From NCBI GenBank assembly GCA_965211635.1, contig OZ242948.1, forward strand, positions 1,460,653-1,524,652: a DNA stretch of 64,000 nt. The letters are read 5' to 3'. Source of the stretch: Dehalococcoidia bacterium (GTDB taxonomy: Bacteria; Chloroflexota; Dehalococcoidia; Bin125). Under the pieces are notes generated by a model that saw nothing but the letters and a program-made list of their open reading frames with translations, ran no database searches and was not told where the DNA came from. The position numbers and the translations under genes are program-made. Shown here one piece after another: positions 1,155-63,590 of this stretch; position 1 is the stretch's first letter, and each line of letters opens with the position of its first letter.

Positions 1155-1308
1155 CCTCCAGAATGCGCCGATAAGTCCCAGTCCCTGCTTCACGCTGGGA
1201 CCCGTTCCCCTCTCCCCCCGCTCCACGAGGGGCGATACCGCAAGTCCACTTCCCCTCTCCCCCCGCTCCGCGGGGGGAGATGCGGAAGGCAGAGGGGGGC
1301 TCCCCGCC
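1155..1308. repeat. Family B GC-rich hairpin repeat units (TCTCCCCCCGC..GCGGGGGGAGA / GAAGGCAGAGGGGGGCTCCCC)
   Basis: Same modules recur at more than 12 intergenic sites in the window; copy ends 2 nt before the ATG at 1309. Confidence 0.7.
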
Positions 1309-1839
1309 ATGCCTCCCGACGACCTGCTCCACGGCCTCCCGCCAATCCTCCCCGACGGCCCCATCCGCGCCCTGATTCTCGGCTCGTTCCCCAGCGTGCA
1401 ATCGCTGGAGCGGCAACAGTACTACGCCCACCCCCAGAACTGGTTCTGGCGAGTGATGCAGCACTGCGGCGTCGTGGACGACGCCGGCGCGGCGTACTCG
1501 AAGCGGGTCGAGCAGGTCCGGTCCGGGCGAATCGCCATCTGGGACCTGTACGAGCGGGTGCGTCGCGAGGGCTCGGGCGACGACAAGATCCGCGACGCCG
1601 TGCCGAACCGAGTCGGCGAGCTGCTGGAGTCACGTGGCCCGTTCCCAATTCTGCTCAACGGCCGTCGGTTGAGGGAGTTCCGTCGGGCATTCCCCGACCT
1701 GAACGCAGAGCTGATCGCCCTACCAAGCACCAGTCCGCGTCCGCTGCATTGGAACACCGAGGAGTCGAGGTCGGCGGCGATCGAGGAGTGGTGCGCGGCG
1801 TTCGCGCTGCAGTGTGATCGGCATACAGTGGACGGCTAG
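1309..1839 (+). CDS. Hypoxanthine/deoxyinosine DNA glycosylase, UDG family 6-like
   Basis: LILGSFPS..S...YYAHPQNWFW motif; ATG at 1309 derived from the ORF frame; repeat-derived GAAGGCAGAGG sits just upstream. Confidence 0.65.
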   Translation: MPPDDLLHGLPPILPDGPIRALILGSFPSVQSLERQQYYAHPQNWFWRVMQHCGVVDDAGAAYSKRVEQVRSGRIAIWDLYERVRREGSGDDKIRDAVPNRVGELLESRGPFPILLNGRRLREFRRAFPDLNAELIALPSTSPRPLHWNTEESRSAAIEEWCAAFALQCDRHTVDG

Positions 1840-2409: not shown

Positions 2410-2467
2410 GAATTGTTAGTGATTGAACGCCAGACGTCTGAGATTCCGACAGCGATCCTGATCACCT

Positions 2468-2587
2468 CGTCATTGCCGCGCTCCGCCGCGGCAATCTCGC
2501 TGTGCGGGGCACGGACGTCTGTGCTGCACGCGGCGAGTGATCCCCGCCTTCGCGGGGACAGGCTCCGCGGCAGGCGCGGGTATGACG
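2468..2587 (+). repeat. Family A dual-hairpin element, copy 1 (variant with inner CCCCGCCTTCGCGGGG hairpin)
   Basis: CGTCATTGCCGCGC..GCGGCAATCTCGC ... GCGGCAGGCGCGGGTATGACG; about 90% identical to the copy at 8658-8777. Confidence 0.8.
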
Positions 2588-2703
2588 TTGGTTGTTTGGG
2601 GGCGGGTACAACGTTGGTTGTTTGGGGGCGGGTACAACGTTGGCTGGATGGGAGCGGGTATGACGCTGGTTGGGCGCGGGTATGACGCTGGTTGGTTGGG
2701 GCG
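2572..2703 (+). repeat. Short tandem repeat, about 25-bp unit x5 (GCGGGTA[TC][GA]ACG[TC]TGGTTG[TG]TTGGGG)
   Basis: Read directly: five consecutive near-identical 22-26 bp units derived from the tail of the family A element. Confidence 0.8.
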
Positions 2704-2728
2704 GAAGTGGCTCTCATTCTGTGGTTTC

Positions 2729-3019
2729 TCAGGCCAAATCGAGATAGAGGTCCCTCCACTCAGGATTGAACTCGTCGATTAGACCGCGACGACGGGCCTT
2801 GCTCCAGCGCTTGATCTGCTTCTCCCGAGCGATCGCCTCGTCCATGCGGTCGTGTGGCTCCATCCAGACCAGCTTGTCGATCTGGTAGCGCCTGGTGAAG
2901 GCGGAACCTTCTCCTCTCTTGTGTTGCCAGACTCGGCGAACGAGGTCGGCGGTGACTCCGGTGTAGATCGCTCCGTGAGGTCGGCTGGCGAGGATGTAGA
3001 CGCAGGGCTGGCGCGGCAT
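2729..3019 (-). CDS. GIY-YIG nuclease family protein (small YhbQ/COG2827-like)
   Basis: CVYILASRP.GAIYTGVT.DL.RRV.QHK.G.G...TRRY.....VW.E......A...EK.IKRWS.A.K..LI...NP.W.DL; 96 aa. Confidence 0.8.
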   Translation of the reverse strand: MPRQPCVYILASRPHGAIYTGVTADLVRRVWQHKRGEGSAFTRRYQIDKLVWMEPHDRMDEAIAREKQIKRWSKARRRGLIDEFNPEWRDLYLDLA

Positions 3020-3049
3020 GGTCGGCAGAGTAGCGTGGGTTCGTCTTCG

Positions 3050-3618
3050 TCACGGCGAGATACCCGCGGCAAGCGCGGGTATGACGGTGGTTGGTGGCGG
3101 GAGAGTGACGGGATTACGCCCCCTCGTCATTGCCGCGCTTGCCGCGGCAATCTCGCCGTGCCGGGTACTGGCGTTGGTCCTGGAAGCGGCGAGATACCCG
3201 CGGCGAGCGCGGGTATGACGGGGTTGGTTAAGCGCGCTTCCCCACTTCGTCATTGCCGCGCTCCGTCGCGGCAATCTCGCCGTGCCGGGTACTGGCTTTG
3301 GTCCTGGTGGCGGCGAGATACCCGCGGCAAGCGCGGGTATGACGGGGGGTCTTGGGTCGCCCCTCCACCTCGTCATTGCCGCGCTCCGTCGCGGCAATCT
3401 CGCCGTGCCGGGTACTGGCGTTGGTCCTGGTGGCGGCGAGATACCCGCGGCAAGCGCGGGTAGGACGGGGGTCTTGGGTCGCCCCTCCACCTCGTCATTG
3501 CCGCGCTCCGTCGCGGCAATCTCGCTGTGCCCCGGTCTCGCGTTGGGACTGGAAGCGGCGAGATACCCGCGGCAAGCGCGGGTATGACGGGGGTTTGGGG
3601 GGCGCGGGTATGACGGTG
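3050..3618 (+). repeat. Tandem array, about 4.6 copies of a 122-123 bp unit built from family A hairpin pairs
   Basis: Unit boundaries at 3125, 3248, 3371 and 3493; unit = CGTCATTGCCGCGCTCCGTCGCGGCAATCTCGCC-spacer-GGCGAGATACCCGCGGCAAGCGCGGGTATGACGG-spacer; the spacers are conserved, so this is not a CRISPR array. Confidence 0.85.
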
Positions 3619-3628
3619 ATCTACGCCG

Positions 3629-7642: not shown

Positions 7643-8598
7643 GGCTGCGGCCCGCCCAGCTTGCCGACCAGCGTCGCGACCATCGACATCATCGGCACTC
7701 CCACGCCTAATTCACTCGCCCGCTGCACCGGTTGGCGGAAGATGGCGTCGAGTTCGAGGGGGCGGCCCTCGTTGTAGTCGATGACAGTGCTGGGGCGGTA
7801 GGCGCCCATGCCGAGGGTCTGGGTGAGGAACTGGTGGGCGAGTCGGCCGCCGTCGATGCGGACGGCTTCGCCACGCGCGTCGAGGTCGGCGTTGCCGGCG
7901 GCCACGATCTCCATGATGATCTCGTAGGCCGCGTCGTAGAGCGGCGGCTCGGTGATCACCTGGTCGACGCCGACGCCACCGGCGATCACGCAGAGGCCGT
8001 TGAAGGGGATGTTCCAGCAGAGCTTCTCCCAGCGGGCTTTGAGCAGGCTCGATTCGGGCCGGATCTCGACCTTGCTGCCGGCGAACAGGTCGACCCCGCG
8101 TTGCAGCTCGTCGGGGTCGTCGCCGTGGTGTCCGAGGTTGATCGCGCCGAACTCCTGGTGCAGGATCTGGCCCGGCTCGCCGCGGATCACGCCGATGAAT
8201 CCGAGTCCGCCGAACAGCGACGTGCCTTCCGGCAGTTGCTCGGCGATCTCATCGTCAACCGTGAGGCCGTTCATGATCGCGAGGACGCGCGTGTCGTCGG
8301 AGAGCAGCGGTCCGACAAGCGTGGGGATGTCGGGGATCGCGGTCGCCTTGAGTCCGACCAGGACCCAGTCGACGGGTCCGTGCGCGGCCAGCGCCTCGGG
8401 TGTGCGCTCGACGGTCGGGGCGTCGAGAGACAGGTCGCCGAGGTGGCTGGTCAGGTGCAGTCCGTCGGCCTTGACGGCGTCGTAGTCGCGGCGCATGAGG
8501 AAGCGGACGTCGTGGCCGGCCTCGGCGAGCCGCATGCCGAAGTAGCAACCGATCGCGCCGGCTCCGATCACCGCGACCTGTTGGGGTTGTGGATGCAA
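7639..8598 (-). CDS. panE: 2-dehydropantoate 2-reductase (ApbA/PanE family)
   Basis: N-terminal VAVIGAGAIGCYFG Rossmann motif; family-typical K...N..N and C-terminal EGRPLELDAI...A...GV..P. Confidence 0.8.
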   Translation of the reverse strand: MHPQPQQVAVIGAGAIGCYFGMRLAEAGHDVRFLMRRDYDAVKADGLHLTSHLGDLSLDAPTVERTPEALAAHGPVDWVLVGLKATAIPDIPTLVGPLLSDDTRVLAIMNGLTVDDEIAEQLPEGTSLFGGLGFIGVIRGEPGQILHQEFGAINLGHHGDDPDELQRGVDLFAGSKVEIRPESSLLKARWEKLCWNIPFNGLCVIAGGVGVDQVITEPPLYDAAYEIIMEIVAAGNADLDARGEAVRIDGGRLAHQFLTQTLGMGAYRPSTVIDYNEGRPLELDAIFRQPVQRASELGVGVPMMSMVATLVGKLGGPQP

Positions 8599-8657
8599 AG
8601 GGCGCCCCTTTGTGAGTTCGTACTGCCTTAAGACCGTCCGAATCCTGCCCAGAGCAC

Positions 8658-8777
8658 CGTCATTGCCGCGCTTGCCGCGGCAATCTCGCTGTGTTGGGCA
8701 CTGATGTCCGCGCTAAACGCGGCGAGTGATCCCCGCCTTCGCGGGGACAGGCTCCGCGGCAAGCGCGGGTATGACGG
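8658..8777 (+). repeat. Family A dual-hairpin element, copy 3 (same variant and orientation as copy 1)
   Basis: CGTCATTGCCGCGCTTGCCGCGGCAATCTCGC...GCGGCGAGTGATCCCCGCCTTCGCGGGGACAGGCTCCGCGGCAAGCGCGGGTATGACGG. Confidence 0.8.
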
Positions 8778-8813
8778 AGTCATGTCTGTTGATTCGTTGC
8801 ACATGAACTGGCC

Positions 8814-10001
8814 TCAATCCCCAGCCGCCGATTGGGCCTGGAGCGGTTCAACAAGGCGGTCGATGCGGAAGAGGCCGAGGTTGTGCTCGGTCTTACGGTG
8901 CATGCTGAGGTCGGCGAGGGCCTCGCCGATGGCCGGGGCGAACTTGAAGCCGTGTCCCGAGCAGGGGCTGGCGACCACGATGTTGGGCCGCTTGGGGTGG
9001 ATGTCGATCAGGAAGTGGTGGTCGGGCGTGTGCGTGTAGAGACAGGTCTCGGCGCGCAGCAGCGTCCCGGAGACATCGGGGAAGGTGTTCGCGAGGAAGT
9101 CGCGCACGCGGCGCATATCAGTCTCGGTGATCTCGCGGCTGTAGTCCGACGGCTCGACCTCGTCCAGCGGCTGGTGCAGTCCCAGCTTGAAGCCCTTGCC
9201 GATGTTGGGAAAACCGTACCCGGTCTCGGTTTCGCTGCGTTGCCACATCCAGAAGGGGATCGCGCCGAACTCGAAGTGGTCGGGATTGTCGCGCGCCTCG
9301 AACCAATACATCACCTGGCGGGTGACGGTCAGCGGCAGGTTGAGCTTGCCCAGCAGTCCTGCGTTCCAGGCGCCGGAGGTGACGACCAAGCGCTCGGCAT
9401 CGTACGTGCCGCGCGCGGTCTGGATCCTGATTGGCGATTCAAGGTCGTCCATCTCGATCGGCAGCCAGCGGTCGACCGGCTCGTCGAAGTGCAGGTCCGC
9501 GCCGTGCGCGGCGGCCTGGTCGAGCTGACCGTTGAGCGCCGTGTCAATGTCCAACATCCCGGCGCGCTGTTCCAGCACGCCGACAAGGTCGTCGGTGACG
9601 TGGATGCCCGGGTAGCGGCGGCGCAGCTCGGCAGCGTCCATCTGCTCGACCGCGATGTCGTGCTCGCGGGCGCTTGCGACCACGCCCTGGACGAGGTCGT
9701 TGCCTTCCGGTCCCAGCGAGAGCGCGCCGGTCTGGGTGAAGATCGGTTGTCCGACGGCGTTGGACAGTTCGTCCCAGAGCTCGTAGGCGCGGCGGACGAA
9801 GGGCACATAGGAAGGCCCCTCGGTATAGGCCTCGCGGATGCCGCGGCTGTCGCCGTGGGTCGAGCCGAACAGGTGCGGCGGCCGGAATCGGTCGAAGCCG
9901 ATCACCCGCTGTCCGCGTCTGGCCAGGTGCCAGGCGGCGGCGGAGCCCATCGCTCCGAGCCCGACGACGGCTACGTCATATCGATTGTTCGAAGTGCTCA
10001 T
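8814..10001 (-). CDS. FAD-dependent N-methyl-L-tryptophan/sarcosine oxidase (MSOX/SolA family)
   Basis: YDVAVVGLGAMGSAAAW FAD motif; MSOX-like C-terminus H..C.YT.TPD..F; start ATG 10001 with AGGAGGA 5 nt upstream; ATGA overlap with the upstream gene. Confidence 0.8.
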   Translation of the reverse strand: MSTSNNRYDVAVVGLGAMGSAAAWHLARRGQRVIGFDRFRPPHLFGSTHGDSRGIREAYTEGPSYVPFVRRAYELWDELSNAVGQPIFTQTGALSLGPEGNDLVQGVVASAREHDIAVEQMDAAELRRRYPGIHVTDDLVGVLEQRAGMLDIDTALNGQLDQAAAHGADLHFDEPVDRWLPIEMDDLESPIRIQTARGTYDAERLVVTSGAWNAGLLGKLNLPLTVTRQVMYWFEARDNPDHFEFGAIPFWMWQRSETETGYGFPNIGKGFKLGLHQPLDEVEPSDYSREITETDMRRVRDFLANTFPDVSGTLLRAETCLYTHTPDHHFLIDIHPKRPNIVVASPCSGHGFKFAPAIGEALADLSMHRKTEHNLGLFRIDRLVEPLQAQSAAGD

Positions 10002-10453: not shown

Positions 10454-10504
10454 GAGCCCCCTCCGCCCCTTCGGGGCACCTCCCCCAGAGGGGGAGGTCT
10501 TCGT

Positions 10505-12402: not shown

Positions 12403-13380
12403 CTAGTCAAATGCCGGCAGGACCTCGTTGACGACGCGGTCGTACGCAGCTTGCTGGTCGTAGCCGACGAGGCGGAGGGTGATCGTGGTGGCTCCGGCGT
12501 CGATGTAGGACTGGATGCTGGCGATGCACTGCTCCGGCGTGCCCATCGCGACCCAGAGGCCGAGCATCTCGTCGGAGTACTCGGTGTTGTAGTAGGCCTC
12601 GAGGTAACGTCGCGATTCGGCCAACGCGGCGTCGCGGTCGTCGTTGACGTTGATGTTGTAGTAGATGCAAACCTCGAAGTCGTCCGGCAGCTCGCGGCCT
12701 TCCTCATCCGCGTAGCGGCGGATGTCGGCCATGTACTCCTCCACGATCGCGGGCGGCTGGAAGGTGGTCATCCAGCCGTCGCCGAGGCGCGCAGTGCGGC
12801 GCAGACCGGCCTCGCGGTTGCGTTTGAGGTCGGGGCGGGGATTGGACGTGACCCAGATCGGGATCGGCCGCTGGACCGAACGCGGCTCGATCGTGACGTT
12901 GTCGAAGTCGTTGTACTCGCCGTGGTAGGAGACGTTCTCCTCGGAGGTCAGCAGGCGCATGACCTCGATCGCCTCCTCCATGCGCTTCATGCGCGACTCG
13001 GGCGCGACGCAGAAGGCGTCGAACTCGTGCAGCATGTCGCCGCCGCCGGGCGCGGCCTGGCCCATGCAGGCGGCGAAGATGGCGCGGCCGTTGGACATGA
13101 AGTCGAGCGAGGCGTACTGGTATGCGAGCAGCAGGGCGTCGCGCAGCGGGGTCGAGGCGAAGCAGGCGGGGCCAATGCGCACGCGGTCGGTGACGACGGC
13201 CAGCGCCGACATGAGGTTGAGGGCGTCGAGGCGCGGCTTGGCCAGGATCGAGTCGCCGACCCAGACCGAGTCCCAGTGCTCGTCGGCGTCGGCGCGCTGC
13301 GCCAGGGCAATCATGTCGTCAAGAGTGGAGGCGCCGGTGACGACGCCGCGGTTGGAGAGTGTGAGTCCGAAGTTGACCAT
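12403..13380 (-). CDS. LLM-class flavin/F420-dependent oxidoreductase
   Basis: MVNFGLTL...VWVGD luciferase-like monooxygenase N-terminus; tandem paralog of 13434-14393. Confidence 0.85.
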   Translation of the reverse strand: MVNFGLTLSNRGVVTGASTLDDMIALAQRADADEHWDSVWVGDSILAKPRLDALNLMSALAVVTDRVRIGPACFASTPLRDALLLAYQYASLDFMSNGRAIFAACMGQAAPGGGDMLHEFDAFCVAPESRMKRMEEAIEVMRLLTSEENVSYHGEYNDFDNVTIEPRSVQRPIPIWVTSNPRPDLKRNREAGLRRTARLGDGWMTTFQPPAIVEEYMADIRRYADEEGRELPDDFEVCIYYNINVNDDRDAALAESRRYLEAYYNTEYSDEMLGLWVAMGTPEQCIASIQSYIDAGATTITLRLVGYDQQAAYDRVVNEVLPAFD

Positions 13381-13433
13381 GGGAGTGCTCCGTTCGTGCG
13401 AGGCAGTCTAGGGCTCGGACGGTGAGAGCACAC

Positions 13434-14393
13434 TCAGACGAACGCGGGCAGTACTTCTTCGGAGATGCGCCGATACTGTGTCGTCTGATCAGCGCTGCAG
13501 ATGCGCAGCAGAACCGAAGTGGCTCCGGCGTCGATGTAGCGCTGGATGTCCTCGACGGCCTGCTCGGGCGGGCCGTATGAGCACCAGCGGCGGACCATGG
13601 CTTCGGAGTGATCGAGGAAGTAGTAGTCGTCGAGGAAGCGCTTGGCCTCCGCGTAGGCGGCGTCACGGTCGTCGTCGATCATCACCGAGTGGAAGGCGAC
13701 CACGTCGAAGTCGTCGGGCAGCTCGCGGCCGGCCTCGGCGGCGTAGCGACGGATGTCGGCCAGGTACTCGCCCAGCAACTCCGGAGTCAGGGTCGTCGAC
13801 ATCCAGCCGTCGCCCAGTCGGGCGACGCGGCTGAGGCCGCGCTCGCGATTGCGTGCGTCGTTCGGATTGGGATTGGAGACGATCAGGATCGGGATTGGCC
13901 GCTGGATCGAGTGCGGTTCGATGGTCAGATTGTCGAAGTCGTTGTACTTGCCGTGGTAGGACGCGTCGTCCTCCGAGGTCAGCAGTCGAATGATCTCGAT
14001 CGCCTCTTCCATCCGGCCGGATCGGGTGATGGGAGGGACGCAGAAGTGGTCGAACTCCGACGCGTCGGCGGCGCCCATGCAGGCGGCGAAGGTCAGGCGA
14101 CCGTTGGAGATCACGTCGATGGCGGCAAGCTGATAGGCGAGCAGGATCGCCGGGCGGACCGGCGTCGTGGCGAAGCATCCAGGCCCGATCCGAACCCGCT
14201 CAGTCCGAGCCGCGAGCGCGCTCATCAGCGACAGAGCGTCCAACCGAGGCTTCGCCGTGATCGAGTCGCCAACCCAGACCGAGGTCCAGCGCTCGTCCTC
14301 GTCGACGAGCCGGGTCAGGTTGTACATCTCCTCCAGCGAGGAATCGCCGGTAACAACGCCGCGGTTGGTTAGGGTCAGCCCAAAGTTGGTCAC
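13434..14393 (-). CDS. LLM-class flavin/F420-dependent oxidoreductase (tandem paralog)
   Basis: MTNFGLTLTNRGVV...; about 55% identical to the downstream copy. Confidence 0.85.
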   Translation of the reverse strand: MTNFGLTLTNRGVVTGDSSLEEMYNLTRLVDEDERWTSVWVGDSITAKPRLDALSLMSALAARTERVRIGPGCFATTPVRPAILLAYQLAAIDVISNGRLTFAACMGAADASEFDHFCVPPITRSGRMEEAIEIIRLLTSEDDASYHGKYNDFDNLTIEPHSIQRPIPILIVSNPNPNDARNRERGLSRVARLGDGWMSTTLTPELLGEYLADIRRYAAEAGRELPDDFDVVAFHSVMIDDDRDAAYAEAKRFLDDYYFLDHSEAMVRRWCSYGPPEQAVEDIQRYIDAGATSVLLRICSADQTTQYRRISEEVLPAFV

Positions 14394-14450: not shown

Positions 14451-17198
14451 TTAGTGCCCGGAAGGGATATTGGCGTCAAATCCCCAGGGCCTGGTGTCTC
14501 TTCCATCTTTGAGCGGTGGACTGATGAGCTCCACGCTTAGGTCGATCCCTTCTGGAATCCGAAAGTAGCGGACAGCCTCCATCGGCTCACCGCTCGGGTC
14601 ATAGCGCTTCCACCAGGAGCGGCCGTTGGAACGTAGCCCAACAACGTAGGCCCAGGCCTCCGATTGACGCTCCCACGTGGCAGTGACGGTCTGCTGCTTA
14701 CGCTCGATCGAGAGTTGTTGTGGTGGTCCGAGAGTAGTTACAGTCTGAGTCTTCGTCCAACGCAGGCGTTCGAGACTTCGATGCTGGGAGGATGGCTCGA
14801 ATCGAGCAAGTTGGTACTCATAAGACGTGACGGGCTTGAGCCCGTCCCACGTTCCACGACAGCGGAAATCTCCGTCCCGAGTTTGGCGTAGCTCCGTCGC
14901 GTAGTTCCAGTCGGCTGCGCCCAGCTCGCGCCAGCGAAGCGCCGTTGTGAAAGGCCAGTAGCGGCAGCTCCAACTCAACAGGACAACATGCCGATGGACG
15001 CTGCGCGCTGTGAGAGAGACACCGAAGGGGTCTTCTTCGGGGTCGGAAGCACCGTCCCACAACGTCGAAGGCCTGAACCAACCGACATGGGTATCACCAT
15101 TCGCGTCCATAACCGACACGTGCATATCGGCGGCAGTTCCGGGCGCATTGGTTCGGCAAGTGACGACGCTATGTCCGGAGCGCTCTTCTGTCTGGAAGCC
15201 CAACTGATCGCCCAGCGACACAGTGAACGGAGGCGCGCCGCCTCGGACGCCCCATAGGACCATGATGGGCGCTTGCTGAGCTGGAGGGCACGGGGAGAAC
15301 TCGGCTGTCACCCTGAGTTCAAGCGGGCTCCGCGCGTACCAACCATACCCGCCGCCACTGACTTCTCCATAGTTCACCGCGATCGCATCGACGGCCACCC
15401 AGTAGCTCTCGTCGTCCGGGTGAATGGGAATCGTTGCGCTGGTCACTTGCCCAACATCGACTACTTCGGCTTCTTCGTAGTTTCGGCGAACGTGGAGCCG
15501 ATACTCGAGAGCGACCTCGCTGTGCTCAGGTGGATCCCAGTGAATCTGCAGGGAGCCGGCTTGCTCCCAGATTCGAACGTTGCCCGGCGGGGTGACGACT
15601 GTGGGAATCCTTGCGGGGACTGACCACGGGGTCCACGCACCGTCTTGGAGCAGGCGTACTCGAAGAGACTGAGGAGCGGCGCCTGCATCCAGTTGAATCG
15701 TGAAGTCGCTGTCGCGGGATTCGCGGATGAAGGTGCGACCACGGGCCTGCCATGACAGCTCGGCCAACTCGGCGTCATTGGATTCCAAGTCGAATCTCCA
15801 AATGCCGGCGTAGATCCCGTAGTGACCGCCCGAGGTATCCACCCAGTGCAAGTCTACGAATGCAGGCGCCGCAGGCGGATCACCGGCGGTGAGCAGGTTT
15901 GGCTCATAGGTCGGCACGTGCATCTCTACCAGGCTGGTTCTCGGCGGCGCCGCGAGGGTGGACACTCGAATCTCAAGCGTGCCGCCCGGATGGTGCCAGG
16001 GCATCTGTAGCTGCGCGCGACTTTGACCCGCACTCACCTTCTCGCAGGACTGCTGCCACTGGAGCTCGAGCGAACGGGCGCAGACCCGAGTCTCGAAGCG
16101 AGATCCTACGGGAGGAGGTGTCCAGTTCACCTCCAGTTGCCTGTCTTCGACGGTCGCCTGTATGTCGGTCGGCGCCAAGATCAATGAAGACCATCCTTCA
16201 GGCGCCGGCTCTGTCCGTAACTCGAATCGATTGTGTTCCAAGGCGTATCCCCACTGATGACCTTGATCCAGATACACCCGTACGTGATAGAGGGTGTCGG
16301 GCAGGAGATCCTCAAAGCGCGCTTCAACGATCGGCTCGCCGCGAACTCCAAGCTCCAGCTCCGATCGATAGGGATATCCGGGCTGGACCGCGTAAAGCTC
16401 AGCAATGTAGCGTTGTCCGGATGTGTGCGGACCCCAGGTCAGCGTAATCGTGTCGTGTGTTGCTTCGGCCTGTAGTTCCCAGGGATGGTCAAGGATGGTC
16501 ACTGAAGTGGTCGGCGACCAGTTCAGCACCAATGGCGTCCGCAGGTCAAAGAGATGGCGAAGTTGGGCGGCCTGCAACTCGAGCCGCTCACCTCGATGTG
16601 TGAGCGCGGTTGTCCAGCGGGCGCTATCCGAGTCGTCGTTGGACCGTAGTCGGCGAAGGTGTTCGAGCGTCCACTCGGTGCTGCCCCTGACCCTCCAACG
16701 CAGTGCTATGTCGTCGGGACGCTGTCCCTCCGAAATCCCTGCAGTCCACCACCTTGCCCACAGGTACGCAGTGGAGGGCCCATATCCCTGATTAGAGACT
16801 TGAAGACGTACGGGAGCTGGCAGTCCCGGCACGAGCCGATGCTCCGAGGCGGCATAGGCGCGATTCCCCACCGAGTCGGTGACGCTGACGATTATCCTCT
16901 GGATGTCTTCGTTGCCGGGCGGTCCCGGACGGGTCCATCCTGCAGATGTTCGGCAAGGGATGTAGTGCGGGTCCGATGACTGCTCGACTGCCCGACCGTC
17001 GACGGTGAGCTGGTAGGGCGGTTGGCCTCCCTGGATGTCGTAGTCGAGCGTGGTGACGGAGCCGAGCGTGCAGGTCTCGCGGGTGGGCTGGACCGCAAGA
17101 CTCAAGGGTTCGGAGTCGTCAAGGCCGGCGACTGCGCCGCCGAGCAGTATCCACCAGGCAATCAGCGGCACAAAGGCTGCGGGCCAGCGACGTCGCAT
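14451..17198 (-). CDS. Large secreted/membrane-anchored protein with repeated beta-sandwich (FN3/Ig-like) modules
   Basis: N-terminal RRRW-hydrophobic anchor; 915 aa; repeated W..P..SG..Y.... blocks; no catalytic motif recognised. Confidence 0.55.
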   Translation of the reverse strand: MRRRWPAAFVPLIAWWILLGGAVAGLDDSEPLSLAVQPTRETCTLGSVTTLDYDIQGGQPPYQLTVDGRAVEQSSDPHYIPCRTSAGWTRPGPPGNEDIQRIIVSVTDSVGNRAYAASEHRLVPGLPAPVRLQVSNQGYGPSTAYLWARWWTAGISEGQRPDDIALRWRVRGSTEWTLEHLRRLRSNDDSDSARWTTALTHRGERLELQAAQLRHLFDLRTPLVLNWSPTTSVTILDHPWELQAEATHDTITLTWGPHTSGQRYIAELYAVQPGYPYRSELELGVRGEPIVEARFEDLLPDTLYHVRVYLDQGHQWGYALEHNRFELRTEPAPEGWSSLILAPTDIQATVEDRQLEVNWTPPPVGSRFETRVCARSLELQWQQSCEKVSAGQSRAQLQMPWHHPGGTLEIRVSTLAAPPRTSLVEMHVPTYEPNLLTAGDPPAAPAFVDLHWVDTSGGHYGIYAGIWRFDLESNDAELAELSWQARGRTFIRESRDSDFTIQLDAGAAPQSLRVRLLQDGAWTPWSVPARIPTVVTPPGNVRIWEQAGSLQIHWDPPEHSEVALEYRLHVRRNYEEAEVVDVGQVTSATIPIHPDDESYWVAVDAIAVNYGEVSGGGYGWYARSPLELRVTAEFSPCPPAQQAPIMVLWGVRGGAPPFTVSLGDQLGFQTEERSGHSVVTCRTNAPGTAADMHVSVMDANGDTHVGWFRPSTLWDGASDPEEDPFGVSLTARSVHRHVVLLSWSCRYWPFTTALRWRELGAADWNYATELRQTRDGDFRCRGTWDGLKPVTSYEYQLARFEPSSQHRSLERLRWTKTQTVTTLGPPQQLSIERKQQTVTATWERQSEAWAYVVGLRSNGRSWWKRYDPSGEPMEAVRYFRIPEGIDLSVELISPPLKDGRDTRPWGFDANIPSGH

Positions 17199-17237: not shown

Positions 17238-18032
17238 TTACGCGGTCACTCCGGCTAGGGCGAAGTTGCGGACGAGGTCGGCGAGGGCGGCAGGGGCCTC
17301 GAGGTCGGCGATGTGACCACTGCCCGCGAGTTCGACCGACTGCGCTCCGGGAATTGCGGCTCGCCAGATGTCGCCCATCTCGTGCGCGACGACGTTGTCG
17401 TGCTCGGAGGTGGCGATCAGCGTGCGCGTGTCGATCCGCACCAGTCGGCGTCCGACGCCGGTGTCGGGGATCGGCCAGAGGAACTTGGCCGAGGCGCGCA
17501 GGTCGAGCAGCTCCTCGACGTACGCGTCCATCGGGTCACGGTCGGCCATCAGCAGCTCGTTGCGCTTCTCGGGGTCGCTGAACAGGACGGCGGTGGGGAA
17601 GCCGGGATGCTGTGCGAACGGGTCCTCGCCGGGATGGTTCTCGGACCAGAGGCCGAGCGGATTAACCAGGGTCAGCGACTGCACGGCGTCGGGCCTGATG
17701 GCTGCGATCTCCGCGCCGATCCATGCGCCGATGCTGACGCCGACGACGTGCGCCGAACCGACGCCCAGCGTATTGAGCAGGTCGACGTTGAAAAGCACGA
17801 GGTCGAGTCCGTCGCGCACGCCGGGCAGGTCGTCCTTGGCCGGACCCCAGCCGGGCTGGTAGGGCGCGATCACATGGAAGTCTGAGGCCAGCGACTCGAG
17901 CGCGTCGCCCCAGCGCGGGATGCCGGTGATCGGGTGGAGGAACAGCAGTGCCGGGGAGTCGGCGTCGCCGCCCTGCCAGACGTGAGCGGTCTGTCCGCCG
18001 GGGGTGAGGTCAAGGGTGCTCAGTTCTGCCAT
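17238..18032 (-). CDS. Alpha/beta hydrolase
   Basis: HVVGVSIGAWIG nucleophile elbow (GxSxG); ATG at 18032 overlaps the upstream stop (TGATG). Confidence 0.7.
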   Translation of the reverse strand: MAELSTLDLTPGGQTAHVWQGGDADSPALLFLHPITGIPRWGDALESLASDFHVIAPYQPGWGPAKDDLPGVRDGLDLVLFNVDLLNTLGVGSAHVVGVSIGAWIGAEIAAIRPDAVQSLTLVNPLGLWSENHPGEDPFAQHPGFPTAVLFSDPEKRNELLMADRDPMDAYVEELLDLRASAKFLWPIPDTGVGRRLVRIDTRTLIATSEHDNVVAHEMGDIWRAAIPGAQSVELAGSGHIADLEAPAALADLVRNFALAGVTA

Positions 18033-19279
18033 CAGTTCACTCCTGCGAGATCGCGCCCCGGGGCGCGTGATTGTTGCGTCGCTATCGGTCGCGGCGACCA
18101 GTGGTCCTCGTGATCTTCCCACAAGTGTCGCAGACGCGGGATTACCTGCTCAGCAAACAGGCGCGTGCTGCGCAGGGTGAGGTCGTGTGGCATGTCGCCG
18201 ACGTGGAAGACGCCGATCAGGTGTCCGGCGCGGAGCGTCTTGACGAGGTGCTCCAACTGCTCGGTCACGGTCTGGGGCGAGCCCGCGGCGAGCGAGCCGA
18301 CGTCGAGGCGTTCCTGCCACGTCGGGATGCGCGACGGCTGCGGATTGGCCAGTTCCTCCATCGTCTGCGCGGCGCGCTCGCGGATGCCGCGTTCGGTGCG
18401 CCAGCCCGGAGCTTCGGTCCAGCCGGGGAAGTCGTCCAGCGTGTGGCGGGAGGAATACTCGAAGTGCGGCTCGTAGCGCTGCTGCGCTTCGTCGTCCGTA
18501 TCGGCGACGACGATGGTCTGCGAGACCGCGCCCTGGTAGGGGTTGGGCTCGACGCCGTGGATCTCGATGCGCGACCAGAACCCGTCCATCGCCGATTGCG
18601 CCGGGGCGATGCCGCGGCTGGCGAGGCAGACGTAGTTGTACCCGCGCTCGGCGCAGAAGTCCCAGGTCTCGGAGGAGATGCCGTCGGCGGGAATCCAGAT
18701 CGGAGGGTGCGGACGCTGGATCGGCCGCGGCCAGATGTTGACGTAGCGCAACTTGTCCGAGTCGCCATTCCAGGCGAAGACGTCCGGGTCCTGCCAGGCG
18801 CGCAAGATCAGGTCGTGGTGCTCGCGGTAGACCGAGCGAAAGTCGGAGGGATTCGCGCCGTAGGCGAAGTTGGCGTCCATCGGCGTGCCCAACGGGAATC
18901 CAGCGACAATGCGCCCGCCGGAGAGGACATCGAGCATGGCGATCTCTTCGGCGGCGCGGGTCGCAGGACGGTAGAGCGCAATCGACATGCCCAACATGAT
19001 GATCGCGGCGCGCGTCGTGCGGCGCGCCAGGACGGCGGCCATGAGCTGCGGCGACGGCATCAGGCCGAAGACGTGCTGATGATGCTCGTTGAGCACCAGC
19101 CCGTCAAACCCTGCCAGCTCGGCAAACTCAAGCTGGTCGAGGTACTCGTGATACAACTGGTGACCCTCGACCGAGTCGTACAACCGAGAGTCGGCGTCGA
19201 CCCAGACGGATCGGTTGCGCTCACGGAAGTCGTCAGGCAAATGCGGCCACGGCATCCCATGAAACCAGTGGAACTTCAC
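18032..19279 (-). CDS. LLM-class flavin-dependent oxidoreductase
   Basis: MKFHWFHGMPWPH...NEHHQ; paralog of 19399-20634. Confidence 0.85.
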   Translation of the reverse strand: MKFHWFHGMPWPHLPDDFRERNRSVWVDADSRLYDSVEGHQLYHEYLDQLEFAELAGFDGLVLNEHHQHVFGLMPSPQLMAAVLARRTTRAAIIMLGMSIALYRPATRAAEEIAMLDVLSGGRIVAGFPLGTPMDANFAYGANPSDFRSVYREHHDLILRAWQDPDVFAWNGDSDKLRYVNIWPRPIQRPHPPIWIPADGISSETWDFCAERGYNYVCLASRGIAPAQSAMDGFWSRIEIHGVEPNPYQGAVSQTIVVADTDDEAQQRYEPHFEYSSRHTLDDFPGWTEAPGWRTERGIRERAAQTMEELANPQPSRIPTWQERLDVGSLAAGSPQTVTEQLEHLVKTLRAGHLIGVFHVGDMPHDLTLRSTRLFAEQVIPRLRHLWEDHEDHWSPRPIATQQSRAPGRDLAGVN

Positions 19280-19284
19280 GAAGT

Positions 19285-19398
19285 CACCCAGCTTTGCCTG
19301 GTTTCCCGCTCCCCCTGCAAGGGGGAGCGGGGAAGATTTGGCAGCTCCCGTGGAAGGAGGGAGCGGGATTTCTCTTACAGCCGTTGATGCGGCTTTGG
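19285..19398. repeat. Family B hairpin repeat (CTCCCCCTGCAAGGGGGAG variant)
   Basis: GCTCCCGCTCCCCCTGCAAGGGGGAGCGGGGAAG ... GGAGGGAGCGGG between the two LLM paralogs. Confidence 0.7.
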
Positions 19399-20634
19399 TC
19401 AGTTCGATCCTGTCAGCACCGGAGCTGGTGTCGCGACCTGCTCGGAGTCGATTGGCTTCGGCGACCAGTGGTCTTCGTAGTCTTCCCAGATGTGCTTGAC
19501 CCTGGGCATGACTTGCTCAGCGAAGAGCTTGGTCGAGGCTCGAGCCTTGTCGTCGGGCATGTCGCCGACGTGCAGCAGGCAGACCAGGTGGCCGACCTGC
19601 AGCTTGGTCGCCAGCGCTTCGATCTGCTCGGTTACCGAGTCGGGCGAGCCGGCCACGATGTAGCCCTCGCGCACCCAGTCGTCCCAGGACAGCGTGTGGG
19701 CGACGCCCAGACCCTGCGCGCCGCCGGCGCGGAGACCGGCGCGGATCGTGTTCTCGGTGCGGTAGCCCGGCGCGTCGGCGAAACCGGGGTAGACGTGCAG
19801 GCACTTGTCGAAGAAGTACTGCATGTGCTCGGTGTACATCTGCTCGGCCTGATCGTCGGTCTCGGCGACCACGATCTGCTGCGCGAACGCGCCCTGGAAC
19901 GGGTTGAAGTCGACGCCCAGCTCGCCCAGCCGGTTCCAGAAGCCCTGCATCAGCGCCTCGCCACGGACGTAGCCGTTGAACGACAGATACGAGTAGTTGT
20001 AGCCCATCTCGGCGCAGAAGTCCCAGGTCTCAACCGAGCCGCCGCCGGGAATCCAGATGGGCGGGGGCTGCTGGATCGGGCGCGGCCAGAGGTTGACGTA
20101 GCGAATCTTGTTGTACTCGCCGTTCCAGGAGAAGACCTCCGGGTCCTCCCAGGCGCGGCGGATCAGGTCGTGGTTCTCGCGGTACTTGTCACGCAGCGTG
20201 GCTGGGTTCGAGCCGAAGCAGAAGTTGTCGTCCATTGACGTGCCGACCGGGAATCCCGCGACCAGGCGGCCGCCCGACATCACGTCGAGCATCGCCATCT
20301 CTTCCGCCACACGGGTCGGCGGGTTGTACAGGGCGATCGACTGACCCAGCAGCAGCAGCGTCACGTCCTTGGTCCGACGCGCTAGCGACGCCGCCATGAT
20401 CTGCGGCGAGGGCATCATCCCGTAGGCGTTCTGGTGATGCTCGTTGACGCCAATCCCGTCGAAGCCCAGATTGGCCGCATACTCAAGCTGGTCGAGGTAC
20501 TCGTTGTACACCCGGTGCCCCTCGACCGGGTCGTAGAGCCGAGAGTCGACATCGACCCAGACGGAGCGATTCGTCTCGCGGAAATCGTCCGGCAGGTGAG
20601 GCCAGGGCATCAGGTTGAACCAGTGGAACTTCAT
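19399..20634 (-). CDS. LLM-class flavin-dependent oxidoreductase (paralog)
   Basis: MKFHWFNLMPWPH start at 20634 within the longer ORF; about 70% identical to 18032-19279. Confidence 0.85.
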   Translation of the reverse strand: MKFHWFNLMPWPHLPDDFRETNRSVWVDVDSRLYDPVEGHRVYNEYLDQLEYAANLGFDGIGVNEHHQNAYGMMPSPQIMAASLARRTKDVTLLLLGQSIALYNPPTRVAEEMAMLDVMSGGRLVAGFPVGTSMDDNFCFGSNPATLRDKYRENHDLIRRAWEDPEVFSWNGEYNKIRYVNLWPRPIQQPPPIWIPGGGSVETWDFCAEMGYNYSYLSFNGYVRGEALMQGFWNRLGELGVDFNPFQGAFAQQIVVAETDDQAEQMYTEHMQYFFDKCLHVYPGFADAPGYRTENTIRAGLRAGGAQGLGVAHTLSWDDWVREGYIVAGSPDSVTEQIEALATKLQVGHLVCLLHVGDMPDDKARASTKLFAEQVMPRVKHIWEDYEDHWSPKPIDSEQVATPAPVLTGSN

Positions 20635-20743: not shown

Positions 20744-21061
20744 GTGAGCAAACCCATCAACGACGACATCCGATTCATGCTGGCGGGCGGGCCTCGCGTC
20801 CCCCGTCCCGAGGATCCCGACGCCTGGCGAGCGATCTGCGATTCCTACGAGCGCAACGAGGCCTGGTACGACGAGCACGTTGACGAGGTGTGGGCAGACC
20901 GAAGCGAGGCGTGGGTCGTGGTCTACGATGACGCGTGCCTCAGGGCCTCCAACGATCTGACTGGTTTGTTCAGGTGGCTCAGCGACCAGGAGCCGCTGAG
21001 TCGGATTGGCGCGTATGGTCCGGTGACCAGACCTGGACAAAACAGGGCCCTGATCCTTTGA
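20744..21061 (+). CDS. Hypothetical small protein (possible partner of the downstream protease)
   Basis: 105 aa with GTG start; W.VVYDD..L.AS.DL..L motif weakly reminiscent of DUF5678-like small proteins (low confidence). Confidence 0.35.
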   Translation: MSKPINDDIRFMLAGGPRVPRPEDPDAWRAICDSYERNEAWYDEHVDEVWADRSEAWVVVYDDACLRASNDLTGLFRWLSDQEPLSRIGAYGPVTRPGQNRALIL

Positions 21062-21120
21062 GCCGCACTGTCCAAGGTCACTTTCGTCAGACCCCAGGCG
21101 CGTCGTCCCTGGTCCCGGCC

Positions 21121-21540: not shown

Positions 21541-21577
21541 TAGGTTGGCTCGCTACGCTGACGATGGGAGCTAGCCA

Positions 21578-22634: not shown

Positions 22635-22683
22635 TTTCGACCCTTCATGTACTCGACGGCTTCGATTTCGATCAGCCGACTAT

Positions 22684-22989: not shown

Positions 22990-23009
22990 CGGGACGGGAA
23001 AGCGATATT

Positions 23010-24789: not shown

Positions 24790-24952
24790 GGCTCTGTCGA
24801 GCGGAGCCAGCGATGGAGCGGCGGAGCGGGACCCCCTCCGCCTTCGGCACTTCCCCCTGCAAGGGGGAGGGGGAAGAGTGAGGCCTGGGTCTCCAGAGGG
24901 ACAGGGGCGAGATCGTCAGTGGGCTAGACCAACCCGCACATACACTGACTGC

Positions 24953-25834: not shown

Positions 25835-25839
25835 CGGCT

Positions 25840-34319: not shown

Positions 34320-34375
34320 ATCGATTTTTCCTCTCCTCCCGCGGAGCGGGGGAGATGCCGAAGGCAGAGGCCACC

Positions 34376-39439: not shown

Positions 39440-39700
39440 GTTCCTATTCGCTCCCCCTTCCAGGGGGAGCTGTCACGTAGTGACTGAGGGGGTCCCTCCG
39501 AGTGTCGCGCATTGGCGATCGCTGGACCGGAGCCCCCCTCTGCCTTCGGCATCTCCCCCCGCTCCGCGGGGGGAGAGGAGATTAGCCTTTGGCATCTCCT
39601 CCCGCGTAGCGGGGGGAGAGGAGATTAGCATTCGGCCTTTCCCCCTGCATAGCGGGAGGAGACCGAGCGGGTCCCCGAGTAAATCGGGGACTGGACGCGT
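39440..39700. repeat. Cluster of five or more family B hairpin units
   Basis: CCCCTTCCAGGGGGAGCTGTCACGTAGTGACTGAGGGGGTCC; GGAGCCCCCCTCTGCCTTCGGCATCTCCCCCCGCTCCGCGGGGGGAGAGGAGATTAGC x2; ... Confidence 0.75.
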
Positions 39701-39703
39701 TGA

Positions 39704-42686: not shown

Positions 42687-42826
42687 CGTCGGGTACGCTC
42701 TCTTCCCGCTCCCCCTCGCAGGGGGAGCTGTCACGGAGTGACTGAGGGGGTCCCCGTCTCGGACGCCATCGGCTCGACCCGATCTTGGAACCCCTTCAGC
42801 CTACGCCAGCTCCCTCCCCAGTCCAA

Positions 42827-52249: not shown

Positions 52250-52420
52250 GAATCTTAGGGCCTTCGATCCCTCACTCCTTCGAGGGAGCTGCTCGCAAAC
52301 GCGCTGCCCCCTGGGGGGAAGCTGTCCCGTAGGGACTGAAGGGGGGACCGCCGACAGTCGCCATCTGTTCCGACTCCCTCTGACCTCCGCCTTGCGGGGG
52401 GAGAGGGAACAAGAGGGGCC
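52250..52420. repeat. Family B hairpin repeats (three units)
   Basis: CCCCCTGGGGGGAAGCTGTCCCGTAGGGACTGAAGGGGGGACC ... CCGCCTTGCGGGGGGAGAGGGAAC. Confidence 0.7.
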
Positions 52421-55803: not shown

Positions 55804-55809
55804 CGCTCT

Positions 55810-55935
55810 CCCCATTTCCGCTCTCCCCCGCGCCAGGCGGAGATGCCGTTCCCTCATTTTCTCCCCCCGCTTCGCGGGGGGAGATGTCACGGAGTGACAG
55901 AGGGGGGCTCCCCGCCACCTCTCCGTATCAGCGAG
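55810..55935. repeat. Family B hairpin repeats in a divergent promoter region
   Basis: TCTCCCCCGCGCCAGGCGGAGA.. TCTCCCCCCGCTTCGCGGGGGGAGATGTCACGGAGTGACAGAGGGGGGCTCCCC. Confidence 0.7.
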
Positions 55936-58087: not shown

Positions 58088-58200
58088 CAGAACCCCCTCT
58101 CCCCCCGCGAAGCGAGAGGAGAGGGCCGATTCTCTTCCCTTCTCCCCCCGCGAAGCGGGGGGAGATGCCGAAGGCAGAGGGGGGCTCCCCTCACTCGAGA
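58088..58200. repeat. Family B hairpin repeats (two units)
   Basis: CCCCTCTCCCCCCGCGAAGCGAGAGGAGAGGG ... TCTCCCCCCGCGAAGCGGGGGGAGATGCCGAAGGCAGAGGGGGGCTCCCC. Confidence 0.7.
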
Positions 58201-62449: not shown

Positions 62450-62660
62450 CCGCAATGCGGTGGCTCCTCTCGGGGAGTTGATTCGTGATCCCGCTTCCCC
62501 CTCGCAGGGGGAAGCTGTCCCGTAGGGACTGAAGGGGGTCCTGCTCAACATCGCCGAGGGAGCCCCCCTCTGCCTTCGGCATCTCCCCCCGCTTCGCGGG
62601 GGGAGAGGAAGAGTACAAGAAGTAGCAGCTCCGCCCGCCGAGCGGGGGGAGAGGAGAGTT
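62450..62660. repeat. Family B hairpin repeats (three or more units)
   Basis: CTTCCCCCTCGCAGGGGGAAGCTGTCCCGTAGGGACTGAAGGGGGTCC; GGGAGCCCCCCTCTGCCTTCGGCATCTCCCCCCGCTTCGCGGGGGGAGAGG. Confidence 0.7.
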
Positions 62661-63451: not shown

Positions 63452-63590
63452 CAACTCCCCTCTCCCCCCGCGAAGGCGGGGGCAGAGAGGGGCTCCGCGC
63501 TCGCGGCGTCGGGCGTGCCCCCCTCTGTCACTACGTGACATCTCCCCCCGCTGGCGCGGGGGGAGAGATTAACTTCCCCTCTCCCACCGC
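63452..63590. repeat. Family B hairpin repeats
   Basis: CCCCTCTCCCCCCGCGAAGGCGGGGGCAGAGAGGGGCTCC...TCTCCCCCCGCTGGCGCGGGGGGAGAGA. Confidence 0.7.

Follow-up and report, generated by a model that had tools for sequence, protein, structure and literature searches.

The question raised by this locus is what a GC-rich hairpin repeat does when it stands immediately in front of a gene. The locus belongs to a 64,000-nucleotide stretch of contig OZ242948.1 from a Dehalococcoidia bacterium (positions 1,460,653 to 1,524,652 of the forward strand), denoted here as the window and numbered from its first letter. In it, the spacer between a CoA-transferase gene and a UDG-family gene is filled by an array of a repeat, family B, that reaches almost to the UDG start codon at 1309. 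An initial annotation of the window had proposed that such repeats might be portable translation-initiation modules, donating the Shine–Dalgarno (SD) sequence to the adjoining gene, or transcription-attenuation modules, or simply REP-like elements with an insertion preference for 5′ untranslated regions (UTRs). As described below, family B is made of small, modular, hairpin-forming DNA repeats, intergenic and previously undescribed, from uncultivated Dehalococcoidia (Chloroflexota), and its placement across the family follows the ends of genes, not their starts.

Structure of the Family B Unit

The family B repeats are real and occur far above chance. The module GCCGAAGGCAGAGGGGGGCTCCCC yielded four matches at up to three mismatches, the module GGGAGCTGTCACGGAGTGACTGAGGGGGTCC two and the hairpin TCTCCCCCCGC-N5-GCGGGGGGAGA five, with 0.00 expected from shuffled sequences in each case. 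Repeat and hairpin surveys revealed that the three modules are not independent, but alternative versions of parts of one unit of ~50 nt, in which a big hairpin is followed by one T, a small hairpin and a G-rich tail, GAGGGGGG. The big hairpin has a C-run/G-run stem of 8-11 bp and is of type H1 (TCTCCCCCCGC-N3-4-GCGGGGGGAGA) or H2 (GCTCCCCCT-N3-AGGGGGAGC or CTTCCCCCT..AGGGGGAAG), with (T/C)TCCCC flanking its 5′ side and AGATG or AGAGG its 3′ side. The small hairpin, TGCC-GAA-GGCA or TGTCAC-GNA-GTGACA plus variants, carries a GNA triloop, and the tail reads (A/T)GA(G/A)GGGGG, then (C/T)(T)CC. Both ends of the unit are purine/G-rich (GAGGGGGG, GGGGGGAGAGG) and SD-like, and each unit holds several G6 and C6 runs. 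A structural descriptor of the whole unit, scanned over ~1.0 Mb comprising the window and related loci (labelled L plus a number), found 245 units, 13 of them in the window and ~6% inside called genes, and none in the reversed sequences used as a control.

Three arrangements were recognized: single units, which lack terminal inverted repeats; inverted, REPIN-like doublets; and units preceded by hairpin-only copies with a period of 43 nt. The doublets span ~110-160 nt, and their arms are inverted copies, the G tail of one unit pairing with its partner's C run. As a rule, the two halves belong to different variants, one with tail A and one with tail B; in the related loci, many tail-A units have an inverted tail-B unit behind them. 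A subfamily, CCTCCCCC-N3-GGGGGAGG with a GGAGGGGG tail, looked start-associated, and a separate class was considered for it; this was dropped, as about three of about nine copies among the matches listed abut a start.

Single units are predicted to fold at ~-40 kcal/mol and doublets into five-helix structures of -70 to -83 kcal/mol (z-scores -3.9 to -6.7), with the G-rich stretches base-paired in the predicted folds of doublets and in the big hairpins. Among segments anchored only by two G runs, the great majority hold a perfect mini-hairpin, nearly always with a G-N-A triloop, and at least six stems were found in it (TGCC/GGCA, TGTCAC/GTGACA, TGTCCC/GGGACA, TGTCGC/GCGACA, GCCGC/GCGGC and GGCGC/GCGCC), with a further one, GCCCC/GGGGC, in the window unit 10457-10498. 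In an ungapped alignment of 28 distinct 16-mers, 91% of cells pair and both sides change in four of six pairs; the pair between positions 6 and 12, for instance, is AU in 13 sequences, GC in 10 and CG in 3. The covariation score was reached by none of 500 shuffles, a count to be read with the caveat that the sequences are repeat copies and not orthologues, so that subfamily structure inflates it. To this extent, the predicted small hairpin is supported by compensatory changes.

Placement Relative to Genes

Gene calling in all loci used codon log-odds learned from the window, and the main placement sample consisted of 132 units ascertained through the exact 25-nt core GGGAGATGCCGAAGGCAGAGGGGGG. 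Ten of these lay inside genes. Convergent spacers held 31 and divergent spacers 10, and in tandem spacers 45 units were in sense and 16 in antisense orientation (p = 0.0003). The distance from the stop codon to the core pattern was 20-150 nt in 75 of 82 cases, that from the tail to the start codon was scattered between 3 and 1325 nt, and in the sequences printed many arrays start 0-12 nt past a stop codon. All 245 descriptor units taken together gave 60 in convergent versus 20 in divergent spacers; among the by-catch units, many of them inverted partners in doublets, orientation was unbiased (26 versus 30). Of 61 units in tandem spacers, 45 lay nearer the upstream stop than the downstream start.

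Another measure, the presence of C4/G4 hairpins, gave 59% of convergent, 28% of tandem and 19% of divergent spacers occupied. In the 105 tandem spacers with such a hairpin, the first one began within 15 nt of the stop in 28, and no more than 3 had the last one ending within 15 nt of the start, with a pile-up of hairpins at 20-30 nt from the start, the edge of the ribosome-binding zone. Family-wide placement is, then, the opposite of the insertion preference for 5′ UTRs or starts that had been proposed. The genes flanking the units are functionally unrelated and encode CoA-transferases, SDRs, luciferase-like monooxygenases, hydrolases and peptidases.

Turnover at Orthologous Spacers

Comparison of orthologous spacers showed gain, loss and exchange of copies, one module at a time. 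L037 has no element in the divergent spacer 62403-62677 and keeps its own GAGGAA SD, and the spacer is half-filled in L048 and full in the window; the spacer 39426-39704 contains one unit in L006 versus at least four modules in the window; and the spacer between the SDR and M20 genes exists in four different states. The spacers preceding the UDG and DinB_2 genes hold another repeat family, famC, in the relatives. Since orthologous spacers may thus be empty, half-filled or occupied by another repeat family, the elements are subject to turnover. An all-against-all blast screen of the loci retrieved six filled-versus-empty candidates, of which one is a family B module and three correspond to a single insertion of the unrelated family A (see below).

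The famC hairpin, CCCTCACCC..CCCTCTCCC-N3-GGGAGAGGG..GGGTTAGGGTGAGGG, was observed in relatives at spacers that hold family B in the window (L001 9937-9993 and 15776-15808; L004 9316-9398; L003 9874-9938). In L001, L004 and L003, the final codons of the abhydrolase gene, stop included, are overlapped by the left arm of this hairpin, CCCTCACCC.

Family B Tails as Possible Shine–Dalgarno Sequences

The host does use SD sequences: GGAG, GAGG or AGGA at -17..-4 precedes 64% of the confident window genes versus 11% in an in-gene control, and many window genes have a textbook AAGGAG or GGAGG at 6-9 nt. A tabulation of distances from element ends to start codons, which the initial annotation had called for genome-wide, was run over the ~1.0 Mb and returned a few abutting copies and no general association with starts: in only 7 of 95 start-facing units does the tail lie within 12 nt of the start. 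Where the start is slightly farther on, an independent GGAG-type motif usually stands between the element and the ATG (judged by eye, uncounted). Copies whose tail would serve as the SD form a real minority, and donation finds no support as a trait of the family at large.

The three starts named at the outset are indeed preceded by copies that end 2-6 nt away, namely UDG at 1309 (3 nt), M20 at 34376 (5 nt) and the M1 aminopeptidase gene, "pepN", at 55803 (2 nt), and homology backs all three: the UDG N-terminus MPPDDLL is kept in most of the 60 homologue N-termini printed, the top M20 homologues (392-393 residues, 99-100% coverage) begin MSL, and MANG(A/S)T is common to the closest relatives of the aminopeptidase. 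The tail is the sole SD-like sequence at UDG and M20, so the claim that the repeat provides the apparent ribosome-binding site stands for these two, and likewise at DinB_2 (10453), at L028/L084 and L101 elsewhere, and ahead of genes in L112 and L115. For pepN the claim probably does not hold: the element-free orthologue L127 has GGGAG at the position where the window has GGGGAGAG, which indicates that this SD is probably native and that the array was inserted just upstream. Even at UDG the spacing is poor, the G-run ending 9 nt and the GAGG 13 nt before the ATG.

Orthologous spacers were compared for this minority. Between the SDR and M20 genes, the window holds one unit with its tail cut to ...GCCGAAGGCAGAGG, followed by CCACC-ATG; L120 has other repeats and then its own GGGAGGAAGACCAC-ATG, L121 an antisense unit and then its own AAGGAGGGAAGAACCG-ATG, L123 is element-free, and in L124 the spacer is 4 nt long, with a GGAG within the end of the upstream gene. 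As the M20 spacers of the relatives keep their own SD, the element-derived GAGG replaces the native one in the window. The abhydrolase–DinB_2 spacer consists in the window of essentially one unit ending GGAGGGGGCTC-ATG, and in three relatives of famC plus an own GGAGG. Between the CoA-transferase and UDG genes, the family B array of the window has as counterparts famC ending GGGTGAGGG-N7-ATG in L001 and L004, both families in L003 and, in the element-poor L130, a degenerate hairpin together with ACTGAAGGGGT at 9 nt from the ATG.

In L003 the native UDG ATG is mutated to ATC and gene callers start inside the repeat, so that the proteins P0010 and P0032 begin ...SPPSGGRCRRQRGAP. The UDG called there (L003 10001-10100) starts at the ATG of the upstream family B unit and carries a repeat-encoded extension of ~22 residues (MP..SPPSGGRCRRQRGAPIP), which reflects either exaptation of the repeat into the coding sequence or an error in the called start.

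Relationship to Known Repeats and RNA Elements

By its placement, copy number, palindromes and dimers, family B belongs with the REP/BIME/REPIN/MITE-type repeats, in agreement with the fallback of the initial annotation, that of a simple REP-like element. REPs lie mostly between unidirectional and convergent ORFs (open reading frames), 3′ of coding regions, and often form inverted dimers (PMC3733652). E. coli REP/BIME and the GTAG/CGTC superfamilies share with family B the short GC-rich extragenic palindromes, the high copy number, the inverted dimers, the mosaics with other motifs, the location between unidirectional or convergent genes and an abundance that varies among relatives (Di Nocera et al. 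2013, PMC3733652). They differ in that a REP is a single stem-loop of 20-40 nt, whereas the family B unit is three-part with homopolymeric C6/G6 stems and has no GTAG or CGTC tetranucleotide at either end. RAYT-mobilized REPINs of Pseudomonas (Bertels and Rainey, PMC3116915) are likewise spacer-separated inverted doublets folding as one structure, with singlets that resemble decayed doublets and with persistence at orthologous positions in related genomes. Unlike them, family B lacks the GTAG cleavage motif, its doublet halves are usually different variants, hairpin-only 43-nt tandem arrays are also present, and no RAYT gene was found in the 1.03 Mb sampled.

The Neisseria REP2 repeat contains internal stem-loops and is able to supply the ribosome-binding site of the downstream gene (PMC3184786, Delihas 2011). 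Some family B copies do the same and also contain stem-loops, but family B is anchored to stop codons, only a minority of its copies offer an SD, and a scan for promoter-like sites was negative (0 in the 20 kb covered, 44-64 kb of the window). A REP2-type expression cassette was rejected on this null result together with the 7 of 95 tails near a start. Mycobacterial interspersed repetitive units (MIRUs), as summarized in PMC3184786 from Supply et al. 1997, are GC-rich elements of 40-100 bp that fill polycistronic stop-start gaps and, as family B, are absent from the homologous spacer in relatives; in that summary, their small ORFs overlap the flanking genes and they carry tetranucleotide direct repeats at filled sites, neither of which was seen in family B. 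With 110-160 nt and inverted-copy arms, the family B doublets also resemble MITEs, for which 50-400 bp and terminal inverted repeats are the usual description. RIME (Rhizobium-specific intergenic mosaic elements) and the Sm-repeats of Sinorhizobium meliloti are, like family B, modular mosaics of GC-rich palindromic motifs, although their hosts belong to a different phylum and their sequences are different.

Other kinds of element were considered and rejected. The repeats are not intrinsic (rho-independent) terminators, for they have no U-tract and the hairpins are followed by AGATG..., GAGGGGGG or CTCCCC; a terminator scan gave 10 sites versus 8.2 expected, none of them a main family B hairpin. 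A known structured RNA (riboswitch, attenuator or sRNA) was discarded because the Rfam search gave no match and the neighboring genes are functionally unrelated; with the missing U-tract, this also leaves the proposed transcription attenuation unsupported. Integron attC sites were examined since they follow stop codons in fixed orientation, and were rejected because no R''/R' cores (RYYYAAC ... GTTRRRY) could be read in the sequence; the flanking genes are not cassettes either, as they are syntenic housekeeping genes in relatives.

Host and Distribution

The UDG-family protein (1309-1839) has its best matches, at 85-89% identity, among proteins of metagenome-assembled genomes (MAGs) titled "DNA-deoxyinosine glycosylase [Chloroflexota bacterium]", which identifies the window genome as one of the Dehalococcoidia/Chloroflexota and not of a proteobacterium. 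A rhizobial or other alphaproteobacterial origin, which the RIME-like appearance of the repeats had suggested, was rejected on these matches. The gene neighborhood is syntenic with contigs of ENA, NCBI and TARA metagenome assemblies. The window is rich in CoA-transferase III, luciferase-like monooxygenase, SDR and hydrolase paralogues, a gene content that we take to fit SAR202-type Dehalococcoidia. Its GC agrees with the range of sponge SAR202 bins in PMC6306507, and the names of the carrier MAGs (IRC, RHO, SB0664, bin125) suggest a sponge origin.

A scan for the exact 25-nt core, with one genome per species, located it in at least 114 stretches, which belong with few exceptions to related MAGs; among the 85 stretches listed, from roughly 25 assemblies, all but one bear the title of a Dehalococcoidia, Chloroflexota or Chloroflexi MAG. 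In the remaining one, an AT-rich contig labelled Dialister sp. UBA734 (L012 3620-3870), the core is embedded in a ~250-nt palindromic element bounded by 12-bp terminal inverted repeats (ACCAATGATAGG). The core was also found in an IMG/VR viral contig of 50% GC (L125 5100-5200), after a hairpin with an AT-rich apex. These two occurrences hint either at a superfamily of broader range that may move horizontally, or at contigs that were mis-binned.

The Rfam search of the window at gathering thresholds gave 0 matches; a permissive search over two doublets returned noise only, with scores far below those thresholds, as did a search of the Dialister-labelled contig. In the literature on repeats of Chloroflexi, SAR202 or sponge symbionts, no description of family B was found.

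Weighing the Explanations

These observations could be integrated by assuming, as we do with moderate confidence, that family B is a lineage-specific set of non-coding, palindromic, mosaic intergenic repeats of the REP/BIME/REPIN/MITE type in Dehalococcoidia of the SAR202/sponge-MAG type. The copies persist mainly where they are least harmful, that is, right after stops and in convergent and tandem spacers. The units would be co-transcribed with the upstream gene, acting as stable 3′ RNA hairpins in the manner of E. coli REP/BIME, and might spread by transposition or recombination via a folded single-stranded form. Where the stop-to-start spacer is very short, a copy inserted there, or grown to fill it, would persist only if its tail became the ribosome-binding site. 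The start-abutting minority would be explained by the survivorship of copies with SD-like ends, a by-product and not the purpose of the element, and the tails acting as SD would represent incidental capture.

Several points weigh against this interpretation. The GTAG/CGTC tag of classical REPs is absent, GTAG appearing only in the loops of some small hairpins (e.g., GTCAC-GTA-GTGAC). In the few filled-versus-empty comparisons, whose flanks are 10-20% diverged, neither a target-site duplication nor a sharp boundary was seen. A tblastn search of 1.03 Mb with IS200, IS608 and RAYT probe sequences gave no credible transposase match, the best one falling inside a 423-residue ORF that by eye resembles a membrane permease; such genes are usually single-copy, which makes this sample a weak test. 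The tandem sense bias (43-45 versus 16) vanishes where the gene pair opposes the regional majority (11 versus 9, compared with 31 versus 6 where it is concordant), so it could reflect the replication strand rather than transcription; when the closed chromosome OZ242281.1 is divided into two domains, 17 of 21 orientations are accounted for at best (permutation p 0.29). Exact-core sampling favors young, intact copies and may under-count old, co-opted ones near starts, and within the window 3 of ~6 start-facing sense units occupy the SD slot. Finally, the UDG ATG is preceded by a hairpin and a G-rich tail in five of the five lineages examined, which exceeds simple neutrality.

The same data can be read as a host-selected RNA 3′-end element whose hairpins stop transcription or block 3′-to-5′ exonucleases, thereby setting mRNA ends and the relative expression of neighboring genes, with mobility being secondary. 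The proximity of units to stops, the convergent and tandem enrichment, the sense excess of intact units (45 versus 16), the extreme predicted folding energies, the stem pairing kept through compensatory changes and the recurrence of hairpin repeats at equal spacers across lineages would all suit it. We nevertheless consider it unlikely, given that the U-tract is missing and terminator-like sites are not enriched, that orthologous spacers do well element-free (L037, L123, L124, L127), and that the orientation signal is confounded with regional strand and missing from the by-catch units. The GNA triloop, moreover, is especially stable in DNA rather than in RNA. A non-mobile structural or protein-binding DNA site (for a nucleoid-associated protein, gyrase, or as a G-quadruplex/i-motif), with copies made locally and homogenized by gene conversion, could account for a 25-nt core that is invariant across many species-level genomes and recurs in two unrelated contexts, for the G6 and C6 runs, and for the failure to find a transposase in 1.03 Mb or a target-site duplication. 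Yet part of the invariance stems from the exact pattern used in the search, the G runs pair with C runs in the favored predicted folds, and presence/absence and family replacement at orthologous sites fit mobile or recombining repeats better, for which reasons such a site seems scarcely probable.

The start-abutting copies invite two further explanations. The element could be a portable translation-initiation module, selected for or targeted to 5′ UTRs and bringing the SD (GAAGGCAGAGG or GGGGAGAG), as the genes with a tail as their sole SD-like sequence would suggest, together with the own GGAGG of relatives standing where the window has the tail (M20, DinB_2), the five UDG lineages and the published precedent of Neisseria REP2 (PMC3184786). 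Against it stand the scarcity of tails near starts, the anchoring to stops, the poverty of divergent (promoter/5′-UTR) spacers in elements, the independent GGAG-type motifs seen by eye, the poor UDG spacing, the antisense and convergent copies that no start follows, and the predicted pairing of the G-rich stretches in doublets and big hairpins, which would not leave them free for the ribosome. As a property of the whole family this idea is largely refuted, and we deem it very improbable. Alternatively, the unit could be a mobile "intercistronic cassette" that inserts after a stop and rewires the translational coupling of neighboring genes, its anti-SD-like/SD-like hairpin lying near the terminating ribosome and its single-stranded, GGAGG-like tail being offered to the next start. 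This notion, which we regard as improbable, arises from the repeated capture of hairpin and G-tail repeats at the UDG (five lineages) and DinB_2 spacers, from the possible exaptation of a repeat as a UDG N-terminal extension in one lineage after loss of the native ATG, and from the invariant core in the Dialister-labelled and viral contigs, which would then mark a recognition site for a mobilizing or binding factor.

The family B elements fill many spacers of an abundant, uncultivated clade, and they generate spurious ORFs (GEMPKAEGG, SGGRCRRQRG and similar) and wrong start calls, such as those of P0010 and P0032 and those of our codon log-odds caller on ATGs internal to the element. The pseudo-peptide GEMPKAEGG, reported initially from translated repeats, was recovered at 58159(+), 39558(-) and 62588(-), and as GEMPKAE at 34349. 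A model of the family would clean the gene calls in hundreds of MAGs. The orthologous-spacer series indicates that insertion of a repeat can displace a native SD and substitute its own G-rich end, showing selfish repeats co-opted into expression signals, a principle known from the earlier examples of Neisseria REP2, MIRUs and Correia elements. If the elements are active, they would be useful strain-typing markers in these symbiont populations.

Family B Copies in the Window

Repeat sequence was confirmed at all 12 sites listed by the initial annotation (at 19285, the hairpin part only), and the variant unit 10457-10498(-), absent from that list, adds a 13th. Single units lie at 1254-1305, 10457-10498, 24832-24876, 34330-34370, 42706-42750, 52303-52346, 55860-55907 and 58139-58184, the four inverted doublets at 25849-25968, 39450-39578, 62491-62608 and 63460-63566, and hairpin-only copies at 39585-39665 and 62629-62651, with degenerate ones at 1211, 55821 and 58096.

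The array in the CoA-transferase–UDG spacer begins with a degenerate H1 hairpin (1211..1237, +; TCTCCCCCCGC-TCCAC-GAGGGGCGATA) and continues with a sense unit (1254..1305, +) that has a 12-bp H1, a small hairpin with one mismatch, GCGGAAGGC, and the tail GAGGGGGGCTCCCC; the element consensus ends 3 nt upstream of the ATG. The variant unit 10457..10498(-), ACCTCCCCC-TCT-GGGGGAGGT plus GCCCC-GAA-GGGGC plus GGAGGGGG, nearly fills the abhydrolase–DinB_2 spacer, its G-run and the DinB_2 ATG (10453) being 3 nt apart (CTC). Only an H2-type hairpin of 14 bp, TTTCCCGCTCCCCCT-GCA-AGGGGGAGCGGGGAA, is found at 19302..19334, between paralogous luciferase-like monooxygenase genes, the 3′ one of which keeps its own GGGTGA before GTG 19279. 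The single unit 24832..24876(-), an H2-like hairpin with GCC-GAA-GGC and GGAGGGGG, is antisense to a rhomboid gene that starts ~170 nt downstream, and the nearby inverted doublet (units 25849-25893(+) and 25922-25968(-)) begins 14 nt past the stop at 25834.

The truncated sense unit 34330..34370(+), TCTCCTCCCGC-GGA-GCGGGGGAGA TGCC-GAA-GGCA GAGG, fills the SDR–M20 spacer, with its GAGG 5 nt upstream of the ATG. A composite element (39450..39691) separates two paralogous esterase genes and comprises an H2/tail-B unit (39450-39492(+)), an H1/tail-A unit (39533-39578(-)), two more 43-nt hairpin repeats (to ~39665) and a GTCCCCGA-GTAAA-TCGGGGAC hairpin (39671-39691); the gene starting beside it at 39426 retains a native AAGGAG SD. 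A single H2/tail-B unit at 42706..42750(+) is antisense and begins 20 nt upstream of the acyl-CoA dehydrogenase start (42686). Also antisense, and sharing one minus-strand tandem spacer, are the unit with a degenerate big hairpin at 52303..52346(+) and a lone hairpin at 52384-52404.

In the divergent spacer upstream of pepN, the array 55804..55913 consists of an H1/tail-B unit (55860-55907(+)) and a degenerate hairpin (~55821-55846), and its GGGGAGAG motif stands 2 nt from the pepN ATG (55803(-)). The array 58096..58190(+) has a degenerate H1 hairpin and, behind it, an intact sense H1/tail-A unit (58139-58184, with the flank reaching 58190); it starts 8 nt past the stop at 58087, and the downstream start (58217) has no SD-like motif. 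Another divergent spacer holds a doublet plus an extra hairpin (62491..62651: 62491-62538(+), 62563-62608(-) and hairpin 62629-62651). The last doublet, 63460..63566, occupies a convergent spacer from 9 nt past the stop at 63450; its left arm (63460-63497) lacks the small hairpin and its right unit is 63518-63566(-).

A small extra module, GTCCCTG-CTTCACG-CAGGGAC or GTCCCCGA-GTAAA-TCGGGGAC, then CCGCTCGG, is often seen beside family B arrays near a stop codon (window 1176-1204 and 39671-39691; L048, L064 and L084).

Other Repeats and Features

Two further repeat families, A (CGTC-type) and D (GTAG/CTAC-flanked in the one copy read), coexist with family B in the window as separate families. Family A, unrelated to B, has the form CGTCATACCCGCG-CTTGC-CGCGGGTATCTCGCC, with a variant ATTGCCGCG..CGCGGCAAT, and occurs at 2440-3620, 8650-8730 and 38355-38460, including five tandem copies of a 122-nt unit. 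It begins with CGTC and resembles the CGTC-tagged REP superfamily, which PMC3733652 did not report from Chloroflexi; the copy at ~8576-8814 is missing from the orthologous spacer in L001 and L004. The palindromic family D (GGGCGACC-ACAAG-GGTCGCCC; five matches versus 0.16 expected) forms inverted pairs at 43118-43193 and 51374-51469. After one of its copies comes CTAC, which reads GTAG on the opposite strand, and the family may be a classical GTAG-type REP/REPIN.

Tandem pairs of paralogues were noted at 18032-20634 (luciferase-like monooxygenases), 35569-36835 (~210-residue genes matching glyoxalase-type genes in syntenic loci), 38494-40630 (Abhydrolase_3 esterases) and, as a fourth pair, 12403-14393; in at least two of them repeats are lodged between the copies. 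By eye, the GC skew of the window seems to track gene orientation, the coding strand being C-rich, and has no single replichore-wide sign, so that it cannot be used naively for orienting replication here. A 906-residue ORF with an fn3 domain (14451-17171) has a coding score far below those of its neighbors, and the region at ~22-28 kb (about 21000-28000) has a lower GC (0.60 versus 0.65); both may be foreign DNA.

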